DNA from: an uncultured Nitrospiraceae bacterium | GTDB taxonomy: Bacteria; Nitrospirota; UBA9217 | DNA length: 64,000 nt | Reading direction: 5' to 3' | Assembly: GCA_964586075.1 (NCBI GenBank) | Contig: CAZPGZ010000001.1 | Coordinates: forward strand, 149,099 to 213,098 | Part shown: one piece after another, positions 6,630 through 32,463 of the stretch | Position numbering within the stretch: position 1 is the first letter of the stretch | Layout of the letters: each line of letters opens with the position of its first letter | The notes under the pieces: model-generated | What the model was told of the DNA's origin: nothing | What the model saw: only the letters and a program-made list of their open reading frames with translations | Databases searched by the model: none | Made by a program: the position numbers and the translations under genes

Positions 6630-7036
6630 GGCAGCAAACCGTCCTCGTTCAGCAGCAGAACAAGATTGTCTCCGTGCCGCAGAACGCCATTGTAGCAGTG
6701 GAGCCCCGGTGCGACAACTCCTTTCGGCATCGGAATTACGTTTTGGACAGAATCCAGGATATCGGTTACTGCATCGACGAGGATTCCGAAGGTCCGCTTT
6801 TTGTTTTTGACGACCAGAAGCGTCTCCAGCGGGCTGCTGGGAAGTTTGAATAATTTTTTAATGTTCAAAACCGGAATAGGCGACCCGCGATATTCAAACT
6901 TCCCTTCAAAAAAATCATCGAGGCTCGGATCGTTCTGAATATTGCGTGCAACCGTAATCTCCAGAAGCCTCGTGATGGGAATGGCGTACTGTTCGTGTTC
7001 CAAAGACAATATCAAAAACCGTTTGTTTTCAGCCAT
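6626..7036 (-). CDS. cheW: Chemotaxis coupling protein CheW
   Basis: CheW-like domain (FLILSLEHEQYAIPITRLLEI...). The ATG at 7036 sits 4 nt after the CheA stop codon. The track start at 7111 would overlap CheA. Confidence 0.8.
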   Translation of the reverse strand: MAENKRFLILSLEHEQYAIPITRLLEITVARNIQNDPSLDDFFEGKFEYRGSPIPVLNIKKLFKLPSSPLETLLVVKNKKRTFGILVDAVTDILDSVQNVIPMPKGVVAPGLHCYNGVLRHGDNLVLLLNEDGLLP

Positions 7037-23359: not shown

Positions 23360-24688
23360 TCACGGCTGGACCGTCTCCAAAAGCCGGTAAAACTCCCGCC
23401 TCACTGCTTCGTCATTCAGAATCCCGACGTGGGTCGTATCGAATCCGTATGTCTTGATGGCTTTCATGTGAATCCGCGAATCGAGCTGGCTCTTCAGGGC
23501 AATCACCCCGTCGCCGCTGGCCCCGGACCGGTTCCGATAGCTGAAAAACATGTAAAAGGGTAGGTTCTGCGGAGTTTCCTGCTGGTACAGCCGTGTCAGA
23601 AATACGCTCTCTGTCGCGACATCGCGCCAGGAAGGGACCACAACAGGCGCCGATTTGAGGCCGCTGTTCGCGTCCTCCACGCCGCCGTATGGCGACGACA
23701 TCGAAATATACATCTTCAGATAAGCCGGCTTGTCACGCTTGCTCAGCGTGTCGATGGCCGACCGCGCCACGAGGCCGCCCATGCTGTGCGCGACAATAAC
23801 CAGCCGGTTAATAGTATGTCTGCTGTTCCTTTCGATAATGGAATTGGCCAGATGCGATTCGAGCTGCGCCAAGGGCAGGCCGGAGGGGTAGTAGTAAAAC
23901 CAGGGCTGAAAGCGGCTGCGGTCCAGACCGTCCACTATATACTTCCAGTCCTGCGGCGTTCCTTCCATGCCGTGCACAAACAGAACAACTGTTTTCTTGG
24001 CATCATACTCTTCCAATGAGAATATCGACCCCTGGGTATGGGTCAGCAGCTGTGTGGGACGGTAGACTCCCATGGTGCCGTACCGGGAATCAAAGAAATC
24101 ATCATCGAGGGAAGTATATTTATAGCTGTTCACCGTCACTTTCGTATTAACCGGAATCTCCGCTTTTTTGGTGACGTTGAAATCGAGCTTGACTTCCGGG
24201 CCGAGCACCGTGATACCGTCGATGGTCAAGGAACGATTGACAGCAGCCCGCTTCCCCACCGGTGTCCACCCGATCATTTCCTGAGATTCGAAGTAATTGT
24301 TGTTGTTCAGATCGACAAAGGCCAGAAGATCGTACTCTCCTTCCGGCAGGAAGAGCGAGTAAAACGTGGCAGGGCTTCGAAGGATGCGGGTAGCGACAAT
24401 TTCGCGCTGCGCATACCGGTCAGACACCGCGACAATCAGCACCGGGCCGTTGTAGGGACGGTTCATCAAAATTCTGCCGCTCAGATAGAAGCAGTCTTCC
24501 GGATACAGTTCCCGTCTTGCTTCCAGACTGGGATGAGATTGAAATGAGGATTCCAGGGATTTATGCCTTCCCATGAAGGCGAGGTAATCGGTCGCGGCGC
24601 CGCATCCGGATAGCACTATCACCAGCAGTATTAAGAGCGCCGAAACCGTCAGCAATTTATGTTTGGTGTTCAGCCAAATATAACCCAA
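23360..24688 (-). CDS. Alpha/beta-hydrolase lipoprotein (lipase/esterase-like)
   Basis: Lipobox LSGC, plus VVLFVHGMEG and the nucleophile-elbow motif AHSMGG. Confidence 0.7.
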   Translation of the reverse strand: MGYIWLNTKHKLLTVSALLILLVIVLSGCGAATDYLAFMGRHKSLESSFQSHPSLEARRELYPEDCFYLSGRILMNRPYNGPVLIVAVSDRYAQREIVATRILRSPATFYSLFLPEGEYDLLAFVDLNNNNYFESQEMIGWTPVGKRAAVNRSLTIDGITVLGPEVKLDFNVTKKAEIPVNTKVTVNSYKYTSLDDDFFDSRYGTMGVYRPTQLLTHTQGSIFSLEEYDAKKTVVLFVHGMEGTPQDWKYIVDGLDRSRFQPWFYYYPSGLPLAQLESHLANSIIERNSRHTINRLVIVAHSMGGLVARSAIDTLSKRDKPAYLKMYISMSSPYGGVEDANSGLKSAPVVVPSWRDVATESVFLTRLYQQETPQNLPFYMFFSYRNRSGASGDGVIALKSQLDSRIHMKAIKTYGFDTTHVGILNDEAVRREFYRLLETVQP

Positions 24689-24962
24689 AATAGGCCCTCC
24701 CTGTAAACGCTGAAGACTTGCAGCACGGTGTTAAACTGACGGAAGATTATACCCTTGTTTTCATATTGCAATCAAGTTCTTGTTTTGTACAAGTGCTGTT
24801 TTGTTCTTTGAAAACAGTCTGAATCCGAAGAAAAAATTCTTGCCCCCTTCGCGAAAGTATAGTAACCTCACTCCATTGGGAGGAACTTCAGCTCAGAGGT
24901 TTTCCCATCTCACCTTGCATCCTCCTGACGATTAAATAGAACAACAGTTGAGGAAAAATATT

Positions 24963-25790
24963 ATGATTACGAACATGCCAAGGACTCTTTCGGCTGGTTT
25001 GTTATTCGCGGCACTCGCCATGGTTCTTTGCATACCCGTGGCCGGGGCGCAGGCGGGAGGGGCAAAAGCAATGACCATTTATCAGATGACCTGGGAAGGC
25101 GATAACGTCGAAGGGGAGCTTTATATCAATGATTTTTTCATCAACAACTTCAGCGGCGCGCAAGCCTTCGGCGGCCTGCCCCTGAACCCCTATCTCGTGG
25201 GAGAAAACGAAGTGCGGGCCGAAGTGCGCAAAAAAAACACTACAAAGCCGGCGCAGCTGACGATCAATGTGTCCGCGATGACCCAGGGAGAGATCGCTGC
25301 GAGCAACCAGCCCGGAAGCGTGACCTCGCTTGAAATTAAAGACGCTGAATTAAAACCCGCCACTACGGTCAAGGCCGTCAAAAAATTCAGCGCTCCCCTG
25401 GATTTCAGCAGCCATCTGCGCCCGACCGGAACTGCCAGCGGGAAAGAAGCGACTGAATACACCAAAATGATTTACGAGCTTTTCAGGGCGAAGAAGATCG
25501 AGGCTCTCATGAAGGAATTAGAGGTCAAGATCAGCGACTACGCAGCCGCCTACCCGGGGCATGATTTTGCAACGGAATTCCGGTCCGTTCTCACCGATAT
25601 GCTTCGGGGAAAACTCGCGCCGATCGATCTCAATCAACTGAGGGCCAGAAAAGCCGGCCCCGGCGGCAAAGTGTGGCAGATCCTCGAAGGGAAAAAAGAA
25701 TTGATCCGCATAATCGCCCCCGACGGTTCCGAAAGCGACATGGCCGTCTACGTTGGTGTGATCGATAGGAAACTGAAGGTCGTACGGTAG
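24963..25790 (+). CDS. Secreted hypothetical protein
   Basis: Signal peptide (LLFAALAMVLCIPVAGAQA) with a GAGG RBS before the ATG at 24963. Confidence 0.5.
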   Translation: MITNMPRTLSAGLLFAALAMVLCIPVAGAQAGGAKAMTIYQMTWEGDNVEGELYINDFFINNFSGAQAFGGLPLNPYLVGENEVRAEVRKKNTTKPAQLTINVSAMTQGEIAASNQPGSVTSLEIKDAELKPATTVKAVKKFSAPLDFSSHLRPTGTASGKEATEYTKMIYELFRAKKIEALMKELEVKISDYAAAYPGHDFATEFRSVLTDMLRGKLAPIDLNQLRARKAGPGGKVWQILEGKKELIRIIAPDGSESDMAVYVGVIDRKLKVVR

Positions 25791-25850
25791 CCAAGGACAA
25801 TTTTCTGCATGCACGAGGACTTAAAAGGACACTTAGGACACAACGTCCCC

Positions 25851-27788
25851 AAAGATTCCCCTCGGCTGAAATAACGTTCTCTGTGTTTACTCTACTTTTT
25901 ATTTATAGACGTAAAATAAGGGCTGAGAGGATTATCCCTACCAAATAATAGATGTTTATAGGTATTACTAGAACACTCTATGCTGCCACAATTCAAATTT
26001 TCTAAATAGGCCTTTTCATGTAACTGCAGCATTCTTAATGATGTTTCAATGCTTAACCGCACGCTAATCTTATCACTTAATCTAATCAAAGCATTCATAA
26101 GAATATCGAAATATGTATGGAGGTTTTCAACAAGTGTATTTAAATACGGCAAAGCTGAAGCGGAGTGAACTATTTGGTTTCTAGTCGTATAAATTCTTTG
26201 AATATGCCACGCTACCCGTTGACGGTGAGAGGAAATAGTTTCCTTGATTATTTCTGGTTTGTGAAATTTTTCATGACACCAATAGCATCGATTCTTCAAA
26301 AGTGGGTGTTTTTCTAATAAACCGTAAATGTGCAATCTGCAATCTTTCAAATCTGATGAAATGAGAAGACAAATGGATTTATCGAAAAAATTACCTTCCA
26401 CTGGAAGCTCTTCTATATAATTGCGTACAGAATAACCACCATGAAATAGATTTTCGCTTGTATCCTTAAATATTTTTTCAACATACGTTAGTGTAAGTGA
26501 AGGCAATAAATAGTTAAGGTATTGAGTAATTCTTGCCTGTCCATCATCTTCTCTTGGAGGTGGCAAAAAGCCTTCGAGTGCTGCCCATAAACTTACAAGT
26601 TGGTTTTCCGGAGCTACCCCCTCGATTGCTGTCCGGTGATAATCCATTGCCTTTACAAATAAATTTATAGAAGACTCGTCGAATTTACCTTTACCAAGCG
26701 TTTCTATAGTTTCATCAAAGTTTCCAACAAACTTGGCCCTTGTTACTGTGCCACGCTCCATAGGTGCGGGTGGTGATTTAACAACAAAATATTCCTCCTC
26801 ACCATCCCTTTTTACAACACAATTTTGCAACCACGTTGGCTTTCGGTGATGATCATAAAAGCGGTAGATATCGGCAAGCAATTCAATAGATGAGTTTGCT
26901 AATTGACGTGCTATAAACCTGTCTTTTGTTTTGATTTTATCAAATATGATATATTGCGTGTATTGTTCATTTATTCCTAGCAAACCATGCAGGTGTTTCC
27001 TAGATTCTATTTCACTCGGTAACGTATCCAATATTTTAACATCAAGGTTTTCCGCGACCTTTTTAAGTTGACTAAATTCCGCTGATCCTCTAAATATAAT
27101 TTTCCAGGAAATATCCTTTCCTTCAAAAATATCTAAAAATGCTTTTATCTGAGAATGCGAATTTATTTTCCTGGGTAGTGCGGTCCAATTAAAAAAATAA
27201 TTAAGCGTCATAAAGTACAGAAATTGTTTGCTATAACCTCGTAGTTCAATTTCAGCGGTTAAAGCTACTGCCAGTTCTGTGAGCTTTTTTTTCTCATTCG
27301 GATACGCTACGGTCTGCTCAATCTTTCTTCTTAACAAGTACCAATACTTATCTGCAATTTCCGTAAGGAGTGCTCTAGTCGTTGCTCTCAAATCCTCCGG
27401 ATTTTTTGTAAGTTCTTTGAGGTTTTTCAAATATTGCGTACTCAGTTCGGGCATATCTTCTTTAATGATAGGATCGTTCTTAAATCGATTTTCAAGTTCC
27501 TCTACAACTGGATTAAGAGCAGCGGGCTTGACTCGCCCTTTAATTAATTCTGATGCCAGCAAATTTAGCTCTAGAATATTTGTGTGCGTATTCAATGCGG
27601 GAGCCTTGAAAGAGTCAATCGTGTGATGAAATAATAATTCCTCTAATATCTGCGCAAAAAATAGCAAACCCATAGAAGCATCACTCAAATCCCATTTATA
27701 AAGACGCGGCTTAATCATATATGATTTCTCCTTTTTTCAGACCTACTTGGAGATACTGAGGCATTTAAGAAGCGCTTTGGGGACGTTG
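25851..27788. mobile_element. AT-rich cassette of about 1.94 kb bounded by 14-bp perfect inverted repeats (CTTTGGGGACGTTG). No transposase is present.
   Basis: Left copy CAACGTCCCCAAAG at 25851-64. Right copy CTTTGGGGACGTTG at 27775-88, plus an imperfect tandem copy at 27799-813. GC content is visibly much lower than the flanks. Confidence 0.35.
25892..27718 (-). CDS. Large hypothetical protein with a C-terminal HEPN-type Rx4H motif (RNQIVH), proposed here as a candidate abortive-infection or defence RNase
   Basis: 608 aa filling the AT-rich cassette. The motif ...IYTTRNQIVHSASALPYLNTLVENL is HEPN-like (R-x4-H). A CYWCHEKFH Cys/His cluster sits just upstream of it. Confidence 0.55.
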   Translation of the reverse strand: MIKPRLYKWDLSDASMGLLFFAQILEELLFHHTIDSFKAPALNTHTNILELNLLASELIKGRVKPAALNPVVEELENRFKNDPIIKEDMPELSTQYLKNLKELTKNPEDLRATTRALLTEIADKYWYLLRRKIEQTVAYPNEKKKLTELAVALTAEIELRGYSKQFLYFMTLNYFFNWTALPRKINSHSQIKAFLDIFEGKDISWKIIFRGSAEFSQLKKVAENLDVKILDTLPSEIESRKHLHGLLGINEQYTQYIIFDKIKTKDRFIARQLANSSIELLADIYRFYDHHRKPTWLQNCVVKRDGEEEYFVVKSPPAPMERGTVTRAKFVGNFDETIETLGKGKFDESSINLFVKAMDYHRTAIEGVAPENQLVSLWAALEGFLPPPREDDGQARITQYLNYLLPSLTLTYVEKIFKDTSENLFHGGYSVRNYIEELPVEGNFFDKSICLLISSDLKDCRLHIYGLLEKHPLLKNRCYWCHEKFHKPEIIKETISSHRQRVAWHIQRIYTTRNQIVHSASALPYLNTLVENLHTYFDILMNALIRLSDKISVRLSIETSLRMLQLHEKAYLENLNCGSIECSSNTYKHLLFGRDNPLSPYFTSINKK

Positions 27789-27878
27789 ATGCAGGGTGCT
27801 TTAGGGACGTTGTTACTTACGTTACTTCCCTTTTTTCTATGACCAGCTTCAGGGCGTTGATGCGTCTGATGTTTTTAG

Positions 27879-28142
27879 GTGCCCAGGTATATTTTCTCTC
27901 GAACGGTTTTAGATATGCAGGCGTCACGCGTTCGGCTCTGGGTGGTGCGAAACGATGCGATTTCGAAGGCTATCGTGGAAGGATGGCTTGATTATATGTA
28001 TATGCGGACATCTTGTCAAGGGAGGTGCTGCAAGATGTCCTTTGGGGTCACCCATTTGAAAGCACTCTACCAAGTGAAAAAGCTCCACCTTGAGACGAGA
28101 AAAGAGCCCTCGGGGCGTTTAGGGTCGGACTTGAATCTGTAG
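27879..28142 (+). CDS. Hypothetical 87-aa ORF
   Basis: ORF spanning the junction of the X and Y repeats. It has no recognisable domain. Confidence 0.15.
   Translation: MPRYIFSRTVLDMQASRVRLWVVRNDAISKAIVEGWLDYMYMRTSCQGRCCKMSFGVTHLKALYQVKKLHLETRKEPSGRLGSDLNL
27969..28025. repeat. Repeat X1 (about 57 bp, about 75% identical to X2 at 30390..30446)
   Basis: GCTATCGTGGAAGG...TTGA.TATA...CTGTCAAG.AGG is shared with 30390..30446. Confidence 0.45.
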
Positions 28143-28180
28143 TTATTGACAATCCTGAAGCAACCTACGCTGTGTCCCAC
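28124..28180. repeat. Repeat Y1 (57 bp, one mismatch to Y2)
   Basis: GTCGGACTTGAATCTGTAGTTATTGACAATCCTGAAGCAACCTACGCTGTGTCCCAC. Confidence 0.8.
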
Positions 28181-28732: not shown

Positions 28733-28756
28733 TCATCGTCCTTGAGGGTGTATAAA

Positions 28757-28813
28757 GTCAGACTTGAATCTGTAGTTATTGACAATCCTGAAGCAACCTA
28801 CGCTGTGTCCCAC
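28757..28813. repeat. Repeat Y2 (57 bp direct repeat of Y1)
   Basis: Identical to Y1 except for one base. It also causes the duplicated MTILKQPTLCPT shadow ORFs. Confidence 0.8.
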
Positions 28814-30389: not shown

Positions 30390-30446
30390 GCTATCGTGGA
30401 AGGCTGATTTGAGTATAGGGATAAGTCGACACCCTGTCAAGAAGGA
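30390..30446. repeat. Repeat X2 (partner of X1)
   Basis: See X1. Confidence 0.45.
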
Positions 30447-30793
30447 AGGATTTTCGGCAAAGTGTCATGAATCTTCAGATCCGCTTATTTTCCTCGAGCA
30501 CATAAAAGTTCCTTAGCCGAAGGCCAAGGGTGCGAGAGACCTAGAATAAAACCCATGCGAAAATATAGGCGGACGACCGAGGACGAGGGTTAAACATTTC
30601 GGACTGTTTGAGCCCAAAGGGGGAGTTTCCGAAATGTACCGAGGACGACCGAGTCAGCCGTAAAGGATTTTCGCCGGGCGCCCTTCTGAGGAGGACCTTC
30701 AATCTGAGCCGAAGGCTCCTGATAAAGCGACCTCCCCGCGACTAACCCGGCCCCGGCCAAATCCGGAATCATATGTCGCAGGGGATTGGCTTA

Positions 30794-30903
30794 CCTTTCT
30801 TGGAGCGAGCAAGAAAGGTGACAAAAAGAAATCATTATGTTATTACTGTTGATTATGCAACCGCCACGCATCATTCAGAATTTATTTGTGATCAAAAGCT
30901 GTC
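30794..30903. repeat. Repeat Z1: a degenerate copy of the 3' end of the NUDIX gene, including the CCTTTCTTG...CAAGAAAGG hairpin
   Basis: It aligns to 32374..32463. The coding fragment is decayed (FDHK*ILNDAWRLHNQQ*). Confidence 0.65.
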
Positions 30904-30918
30904 ATAGAAGCGATTTGC

Positions 30919-32103
30919 TCAGAAGAGATCGAGGACTGTCTGGGCCGCCTGTGATGAGAGGCTGAGCGAGGTGGTGCCGAGCGATTCCCGGGTCTGGAGC
31001 ATCAACATGTTGGCCCCTTCCTGGTTCATGTCGGCAAGGGTAAGCTCGTCAACCCCGACCTGCAGGCTGTTGACCATGCTGGTCGTGAAATCCTCGCGCG
31101 TCGTAACAATGCTCAGATTGGAAGAGAGGCTTGCAGAGTAGTTCTGGAGGGTGGTCACGGCGGAATTCAGCTCGTTTATCGAGGCCTGTATGCCGCCGGA
31201 AGCGAGCCAGGAGTTGCTGCCGGGCGTGGTTACGGTTATGGAGTTCGGCGCGCCGGTTGTGTGGTTGAAACCGCTCGCGTCGTACTGAATCGAGACCGCG
31301 TCGCCGATGTTGAACGTGCCGGACACCACCAGGGCCCAATAGTCTCCACCAATGGAAGGCGGCTGATAACCACTGGCATCCACGGAATCGCCGGTTGCTA
31401 TTGCTCCTGTCACGGAATCGACAATTCTGTAATTGAACGGATTCGCGTTCATGAGATTTCCCAGCGCGGCCGTTACCGTGCCGGCGCCGAGCTTGACAAT
31501 GTGATAGGTAGAGTCATAACTTGACACTGTCGCCGTCTGGAGAGTTGTGACCGTGCTCGTGACGATCTGCGTGCTGCTTGCCGTGTTCGCCGCGTGCAGG
31601 CCGAGCCCGGTGCTCGAGCCGTCGAACCCGTTGATCTGAAGCGAATTCCCGCTCGTGCTGTCGAAGATGACGGTCAGATTCTGGGACGCGAGAAAGTCGG
31701 TGCCGGAATAGCCAGAGTCGCGGGACATCTGCGTGATCTGGCCCAAAATTGTGTCAAACTGCGCGGCGTAAGAGTTGATCGCAGTCGTGTCGGACGTGGC
31801 AAGCGCGGACTGGGCCAGGCCTTTTGCGGCATCGATCAGCCTGGTAATGCCGGAGATGCCGTCGTTCGCGGCCTGAATGGTGCTGACCGCGTTCGACATA
31901 GAGTCTTTCAGACCCGTCAGATTGGAGGCACGCATATTGAGCGTCTGGGCCGCGAAAAAGCTGGTGGGATTATCAAGGGCGGTGTTCACTTTTTTCCCGG
32001 TGGCAAGACGCTCCTGTGTCCTGTTCAGGAGACTTGACGTCTTCTGCAGGCTGATGAGATTCGACCTCATTCCCGTTGTCAGCGATATGTCATTGATGCC
32101 CAT
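30919..32103 (-). CDS. fliC: Flagellin (divergent FliC-like)
   Basis: Conserved flagellin N-terminal domain (...LATGKKVNTALDNPTSFFAAQ...ANDGIS) and C-terminal domain (...ANMLMLQTRESLGTTSLSLSSQAAQTVLDLF). The ATG at 32103 follows a GAGG. Confidence 0.85.
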   Translation of the reverse strand: MGINDISLTTGMRSNLISLQKTSSLLNRTQERLATGKKVNTALDNPTSFFAAQTLNMRASNLTGLKDSMSNAVSTIQAANDGISGITRLIDAAKGLAQSALATSDTTAINSYAAQFDTILGQITQMSRDSGYSGTDFLASQNLTVIFDSTSGNSLQINGFDGSSTGLGLHAANTASSTQIVTSTVTTLQTATVSSYDSTYHIVKLGAGTVTAALGNLMNANPFNYRIVDSVTGAIATGDSVDASGYQPPSIGGDYWALVVSGTFNIGDAVSIQYDASGFNHTTGAPNSITVTTPGSNSWLASGGIQASINELNSAVTTLQNYSASLSSNLSIVTTREDFTTSMVNSLQVGVDELTLADMNQEGANMLMLQTRESLGTTSLSLSSQAAQTVLDLF

Positions 32104-32223
32104 TTCCCTGGCCTCGACCTCTTGGCAGAACAATCACGCCCGATTTCTAATATCGTTGCGACCTTTCGCGTAACTAATTTAAAAAAAGCACACGAATCCC
32201 GTGTTTTGCTCTTGCTGCTATGC

Positions 32224-32250: not shown

Positions 32251-32373
32251 GGGTGATTGAGGGCGGATGGCGACGATGAGAAGTCTGAAGGGTCAACTTA
32301 AAGAGGGTGTTTTATTTTGTGTTTTTTGCCGCTATCATCGTGTTTCGTTTATTTTTTACTGCACCTTTCTTGT

Positions 32374-32463
32374 TTGCCCGAAGAAAGGTGACAAAATCCT
32401 GTTACCGTTGATTATGCAACCGCCACGCGTCATTCAGAATTTTCTTATGATCAAACGCTATCT
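32374..32463. repeat. Repeat Z2: the native 3' end of the NUDIX gene plus its downstream hairpin
   Basis: Partner of Z1. Confidence 0.65.

Follow-up and report, generated by a model that had tools for sequence, protein, structure and literature searches.

A probable divergent ApeA-family HEPN protein encoded in a strain-variable chromosomal slot of an uncultured Nitrospiraceae bacterium

The DNA analysed here is a stretch of 64,000 nucleotides, hereafter called the window, from an uncultured Nitrospiraceae bacterium (contig CAZPGZ010000001.1, positions 149,099 to 213,098 of the forward strand, assembly GCA_964586075.1), and its subject is a single AT-rich gene at window positions 25892..27718 on the minus strand. 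With an estimated probability of about 0.87, this gene was horizontally acquired, occupies a small slot that varies between strains and encodes a 608-aa protein that is a divergent ApeA of the branch of Ec2ApeA and Ec3ApeA. Direct support comes from homology to the family, the catalytic motif, a conserved pocket core, a model with the HEPN fold, the foreign base composition and the variable slot. By analogy with characterised homologues, the most likely function is that of an infection-activated oligomeric HEPN RNase cleaving tRNA anticodon loops. The gene, its ribosome-binding site and the parts of the protein are as follows.

25892..27718, minus strand: ApeA-family gene, 608 aa, standalone (open reading frame list and full-length phmmer match to Ec2ApeA)
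27728..27733, minus strand: Shine-Dalgarno sequence AAGGAG, 9 nt 5′ of the ATG (direct sequence reading)
27119..27718, minus strand: N-terminal all-helical domain, residues 1-200 approximately (AlphaFold2 helices 13-199; aligns with Ec2ApeA 1-198)
26759..27118, minus strand: Mid alpha/beta domain, residues 201-320 approximately (AlphaFold2 strands; corresponds to Ec2ApeA Mid 199-309)
25937..26683, minus strand: split HEPN domain, residues 346-594 approximately
26165..26182, minus strand: catalytic HEPN motif R513-N-Q-I-V-H518 (aligned with Ec2ApeA R502-N-L-I-V-H507)

The open reading frame begins with ATG and is the same single minus-strand gene of 608 codons that had been reported in the initial annotation of this DNA. 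In phmmer searches of the PDB sequences its product matched Ec2ApeA (9hxb/9hxi) with an E value of 3e-56, query residues 5-590 being aligned with residues 5-579 of the 593-residue chain, and Ec3ApeA with an E value of 4e-48. A clade profile built from the 24 closest relatives gave E values of 7.5e-110 for Ec2ApeA and 8.5e-99 for Ec3ApeA, and placed Ec1ApeA (9hxn, 1.1e-33) and Ec4ApeA (9hxm, 6.5e-32) in the same family at a greater distance than Ec2ApeA and Ec3ApeA. With a threshold of E≤1e-3, an exhaustive search returned 1512 cluster representatives, almost all about 600 aa long and collinear. The initial annotation had recognised no known Abi family in the protein and had proposed that it was undescribed, a view that is overturned by the full-length homology to Ec2ApeA. 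Its broader proposal of a single-gene HEPN protein of the defence or abortive-infection type is supported.

The ApeA family was named, as ApeA/BMEI1217, in a 2013 survey of HEPN proteins (PMC3710099), and its later validation as a single-gene defence system is cited in passages of 10.64898/2026.01.26.701840 and 10.64898/2026.03.20.713152. Several ApeA proteins have been solved by cryo-electron microscopy (PDB 9hxb and related entries) and described as abortive-infection RNases that cut tRNA anticodon loops, arrange their HEPN dimers in decameric or dodecameric rings and are activated when a ligand binds a conserved pocket away from the active site (bioRxiv 10.64898/2026.01.26.701840). The ligands sensed by Ec2ApeA are 5′-phosphorylated deoxydinucleotides (pdNG), to which Ec1ApeA does not respond; five family members protect against phages, and overexpression of ApeA is toxic in E. 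coli (10.64898/2026.01.26.701840).

The AlphaFold2 monomer model of the whole chain reached a predicted local distance difference test score (pLDDT) of 88 and a predicted template modelling score (pTM) of 0.86. Its N-terminal domain is predicted from the alignment to form one wall of the activator pocket, with S36, F37, P40, A41, L42 and E74. In the Mid domain beta strands are modelled at residues 203-211, 228-230, 255-264, 300-304 and 310-313, and the C-terminal domain is helical. The domain order and secondary structure of the model thus agree with the published three-domain architecture of ApeA. The four-helix up-and-down HEPN bundle with an Rx4-6H motif, which the initial annotation had put forward as a structural check, is present in the predicted model.

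The RNQIVH sequence, previously picked out as an R-x4-H motif of HEPN type, lies at the catalytic position of Ec2ApeA. R513, N514 and H518 align with R502, N503 and H507 of Ec2ApeA and are invariant among the 24 relatives; in Ec2ApeA the R502A mutation ends defence (10.64898/2026.01.26.701840). The ligand pocket between the N-terminal and HEPN domains appears from the alignment to be conserved at its core, where E74, Y412, H498, R501 and Y536 correspond to E74, Y401, H487, R490 and Y525 of Ec2ApeA. Four of these residues (E74, Y412, H498 and Y536) are invariant in the 24 relatives, and position 501 is R in 16/24 and K in 7/24. The Ec2ApeA oligomerisation residue R551 is matched by R562.

The CYWCHEKFH cluster noted earlier is indeed present, at residues 478-486, but it does not hold as a feature of the family: C478 occurs in 10/24 and C481 in 9/24 relatives, and Ec2ApeA has no Cys there. 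A role of the cluster as a Zn-binding family feature was ruled out since it is not conserved. The CxxC pair itself (residues 478-481) is located in a predicted helix and is common to about 10/24 of the closest relatives. It could be a clade-specific metal site, separate from the Zn site that has been reported for Ec2ApeA and Ec3ApeA.

Compared with the structurally characterised proteins, the present one is most like Ec2ApeA (E. coli 2-156-04_S4_C1; 9hxb/9hxd/9hxe/9hxi) and Ec3ApeA (9hxj), with which it shares a standalone gene of about 600 codons, end-to-end collinearity, the order of the three domains, the position of the R-N-x3-H motif, the pocket core (E74, Y, H, R, Y) and the R551/R562 residue. 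It differs from Ec2ApeA at the equivalents of R148/R152, which are K144/E148, and at the regulatory-loop arginines, R334 and R336 being replaced by K345 and D347. The hosts are also different, enterobacterial for Ec2ApeA and Ec3ApeA and an uncultured bacterium of anaerobe type, known from a metagenome-assembled genome (MAG), for the present protein. Ec1ApeA, reportedly the original ApeA of Gao et al. 2020, is set apart by an RNKITH motif, in which the catalytic Arg is R521, a different pocket, no activation by deoxydinucleotides and the ability to cleave RNA-phage genomes without killing the cell. Unlike HepT/MntA, Csm6/Csx1, the HEPN domains of AbiA/AbiV and RnlA/LsoA, the present gene has no cognate antitoxin, CARF domain or partner gene, and in contrast to minimal HEPN toxins and effectors its product has insertions that split the HEPN domain, and carries this domain in fusion with about 340 aa of N-terminal and Mid domains peculiar to ApeA.

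A working mechanism can be outlined in which the oligomeric state, ligand, RNA target and phage protection are taken over from the homologues. The protein would dimerise via its C-terminal split HEPN domain, R513, N514 and H518 of two subunits forming one composite RNase site, and the dimers would probably build a ring. An infection-made small nucleotide-derived signal would be bound in the surface pocket described above (E74, Y412, H498, R501 and Y536) and would turn on the RNase allosterically. Cuts in tRNA anticodon loops would then lead to translation arrest, that is, to abortive infection.

A number of observations weigh against this interpretation, either against the family assignment or against the function drawn from it. 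Identity to Ec2ApeA is only 27%, and Pfam, NCBIfam and PHROGs gave no meaningful match to the protein. Of the profile searches that had been suggested for it, the one against Pfam was thus negative, and the one against PADLOC did return the ApeA model (PDLC02157) as the best match, though weakly, with an E value of 1e-4, 19 bits and coverage of residues 478-544 only. A Foldseek search of the PDB with the whole chain found nothing significant; the fold libraries apparently lack the 9hx* ApeA entries. The pocket periphery deviates from that of Ec2ApeA at five positions (Y37 to F37, S40 to P40, Y469 to W480, Q494 to H505 and H521 to N532), all typical of the whole clade, so the activating ligand may not be the pdNG deoxydinucleotide of Ec2ApeA. 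The Y37F change impairs Ec2ApeA (10.64898/2026.01.26.701840), yet in the present protein F is the native residue at this position. Most inter-dimer interface residues also differ from those of Ec2ApeA. Among the homologues, Thr1ApeA is dimeric and inactive in E. coli (10.64898/2026.01.26.701840), and Ec1ApeA can also cut RNA-phage genomes non-abortively, the cell surviving (10.64898/2026.03.20.713152). The RNA target and the outcome of cleavage by the present protein are therefore uncertain. The weak or missing matches in standard collections imply that routine annotation would probably miss this ApeA.

That the protein is instead a HEPN RNase with a non-antiviral role, as a toxin or in RNA processing, or an inactive relic, is very unlikely. 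Such a reading could draw on the homologue that is inactive in a heterologous host, and on the surroundings of the gene, which include no large defence island, its neighbours in the window being housekeeping genes. Against it, the open reading frame is intact and full-length, the catalytic and pocket-core residues are invariant across the clade save for the R/K variation at position 501, five members of the family are phage-protective (10.64898/2026.01.26.701840), and the gene is patchy in distribution, AT-rich and strain-variable, with a restriction-modification-like module in the same slot of a sister genome.

The GC content of positions 25855-27774 is 36.4%, compared with 51.3% in the remaining window, and this is the lowest-GC 1.92-kb stretch of the 64 kb (sliding mean 0.509, standard deviation 0.039). 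The low-GC segment seen by eye in the initial annotation is thereby borne out, as is its description as compositionally foreign DNA; the background of 55-60% given there was set too high. The other low-GC patches of the window likewise belong to housekeeping genes, among them squalene-hopene cyclase, PGI and MnmE/MnmG.

A MAG named 'Nitrospirota bacterium' (OY760142.1, locus L008) is the closest genome, with 93-95% identity by blastn. It is collinear with the window up to 24920 and again from 28112/28186, and the interval between these points defines the slot.

24921..28111, no strand: slot that is strain-variable relative to OY760142.1, containing a 280-aa gene, the ApeA gene and its promoter (blastn synteny)
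24948-25790, plus strand: 280-aa hypothetical gene of native GC with an N-terminal hydrophobic stretch, signal-peptide-like by eye (no Pfam family)

The slot is regarded as strain-variable because at the same place (L008 4734-9764) this near-identical genome carries a C-5 cytosine methylase Dcm (PF00145), a 981-aa UvrD/PD-(D/E)XK helicase-nuclease and Vsr. It looks like a module of restriction-modification or other defence type that changes places with the 280-aa gene plus ApeA; the slot holds defence-type cargo in both strains. The 280-aa protein had no relative in the metagenome scan, and its gene is absent from the sister genome. Since locus L008 is without both the 280-aa gene and ApeA, the insertion ends of ApeA are not definable from it. 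The search for an empty site found nothing with the 280-aa protein and, with the GNAT protein encoded near the slot, only distant, non-syntenic loci. A two-gene system of ApeA and the convergent 280-aa gene was considered and rejected, the latter having native GC, no Pfam family and no homologue beside the 24 other ApeA loci.

The neighbours within ±10 kb are housekeeping genes (CheD, methyltransferase, flagellin, GNAT acetyltransferase, DUF676, periplasmic binding protein, radical SAM, DksA, FtsH and others). The flanking genes are convergent or unrelated, and no co-occurrence with other clade members was seen. Seven further clade loci likewise have the ApeA gene as a solitary insertion among unrelated genes, for example alaS/bamD. 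The gene is richer in AT than its flanks at seven of the eight loci (L038 excepted), by 4-31 points at six of the seven others. More distant relatives, with 24-27% identity, are encoded on 17 viral or prophage contigs of IMG/VR (L051-L067), so part of the ApeA family travels on phages; no relative was found in phage GenBank records. On plasmids relatives are few and distant (22-25% identity).

A short repeat surrounds the gene, and a predicted promoter lies upstream of it.

25841..25854, no strand: left arm CAACGTCCCCAAAG, 37 nt past the stop codon; reaches 25831 when paired with the outer right copy
27775..27788, no strand: inner right arm CTTTGGGGACGTTG, 56 nt 5′ of the start codon
27799..27822, no strand: outer right copy CTTTAGGGACGTTG with a 10-nt extension; 24-nt, 79% inverted repeat with 25831-25854
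27991..28019, minus strand: sigma-70 consensus promoter TTGACA-17 nt-TATAAT, 12/12 matches (putative function)

The left and inner right arms form a perfect 14-bp inverted repeat. The initial annotation had the length, the perfect match and the right arm correct, and misplaced the left arm by 10 (25851-64); the imperfect further copy that it reported near 27799-813 corresponds to a third copy of the 14-mer at 27799-27812 with one mismatch. When the longest perfect inverted repeat between two 150-nt flanks was determined for the 46 gene-like open reading frames of the window, the ApeA gene had 14 nt and the runner-up 9 nt, and in 0/3000 shuffles of the ApeA-gene flanks was 14 nt reached (maximum 12). 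The inverted repeat is on these grounds not due to chance. In the window, perfect inverted repeats of 14 nt or more with arms within 3 kb form five distinct pairs, the ApeA pair included, and what sets the ApeA pair apart is its placement at the two ends of the gene and at the step in GC content, not its mere existence. The other four pairs, of 14-15 nt, are found at 6839/6891, 18752/19761, 36156/38914 and 54607/55670, against a random expectation of about 0.7.

The predicted promoter (28019-27991) lies beyond the repeat-bounded segment, about 270 nt 5′ of the start codon of ApeA. Window positions 27969-28020, 5′ of ApeA, and 30390-30441, 5′ of a 319-aa gene, share a 52-nt repeat with 79% identity, and both copies hold a minus-strand sigma-70-like promoter (TTGACA-17-TATAAT and TTGACA-17-TATACT). 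As this repeat carries a promoter 5′ of both genes, the ApeA promoter was possibly copied from a native one.

What the repeat does was weighed in three ways. It had been read as the termini of a non-autonomous cassette resembling a miniature inverted-repeat transposable element (MITE), which would have moved an undescribed HEPN defence protein via its terminal inverted repeats. The likeness lies in terminal-looking repeats, perfect over 14 bp or 79% identical over 24 bp with the outer copy, and in their position, exactly where the gene ends on either side and the GC content steps; they are a statistical outlier. MITEs are, by definition, short (under about 1 kb) and non-coding. The present unit differs in that it is 1.95 kb long and consists almost wholly of the 608-aa open reading frame, and its protein falls in an already described family. 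Inspection of the sequence found no target-site duplication, that is, no direct repeat adjoining the arms on the outside, whether these are taken as 14 bp or as 24 bp, and no more copies of the 14-mer occur in the 64 kb save a two-mismatch match within a gene at 24166. No transposase, integrase or recombinase is encoded within ±10 kb of the ApeA gene, so that a cognate transposase is missing from its vicinity. The search for the same cassette elsewhere, which had been proposed earlier, found the motif or any flanking inverted repeat at none of the seven other clade loci, and the same termini were missing from 21 kb of the sister genome OY760142.1. Among 5.8 billion sequences the closest protein shares no more than 48% identity, so that a second copy of the cassette is not known. 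Synteny with the closest genome, moreover, breaks at 24920 and 28112 and not at the repeat. The MITE-like cassette is therefore highly improbable.

There is an equally slight chance that the repeats bound an invertible segment in which the whole ApeA gene flips relative to the fixed outside promoter, giving phase-variable ON/OFF expression. The layout makes this conceivable, since the only strong promoter stands just beyond the right arms, the repeats enclose the full gene with its ribosome-binding site and two alternative right-hand copies are present; a switch would also suit a protein whose homologues are toxic when overexpressed. The segment has, however, the same orientation in the window, in JGI contig L001 and in Logan contig L002, which are 3/3 independent assemblies; the arms, with 14 bp, are short, and the lack of a nearby invertase or recombinase gene applies here as well. 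A cis-regulatory role of the 14-mer, as operator sites of a regulator or through pairing of the 5′ and 3′ untranslated regions of the mRNA, is unlikely, though less so. Two direct copies 24 bp apart are situated in the leader and one inverted copy past the stop codon, all three in the non-coding leader or trailer of a single gene, both leader copies would be transcribed if the predicted promoter is the start, and the repeat is non-random. Evidence to the contrary is that the local folds of leader and trailer RNA were no better than shuffled (z +1.2, +0.35 and -0.56), that neither had a match in Rfam, that the motif is not kept at homologous loci and that no regulator gene adjoins. It is quite unlikely, and offered as speculation, that the repeat marks a gene-sized invertible switch or other cis-control and that the altered pocket of the clade reflects an infection signal other than pdNG.

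Further repeats occur close to the slot. Direct repeats of 68 nt (93% identical) stand on both sides of the GNAT gene at window positions 28113-28180 and 28746-28813, and the duplication extends further in L008, where it also takes in a second, incomplete copy of the C-terminal region of a 168-aa gene (L008 4723-5046), which points to a local duplication beside the variable slot. An integron cassette, suggested by the GNAT neighbour and the repeats, was rejected: there is no attC-like palindrome and no integrase, and the repeats represent the local duplication shared with the sister genome. The flagellin gene (30919-32133) is bracketed by 61-nt direct repeats (89%) and a 38-nt inverted repeat (30783-30903 and 32362-32462), which may be duplicated regulatory regions of tandem flagellin genes.

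The current understanding of the ApeA family is not changed by this finding, which adds to it a divergent member from an uncultured environmental lineage, at 27% identity to the closest protein that has been characterised. This branch is under-detected by the standard models for defence annotation. The locus is an example of a small chromosomal slot that has different defence-type cargo in near-identical strains, and the clade, which keeps the catalytic and pocket cores and alters the pocket periphery, is useful for probing the ligand range of ApeA.

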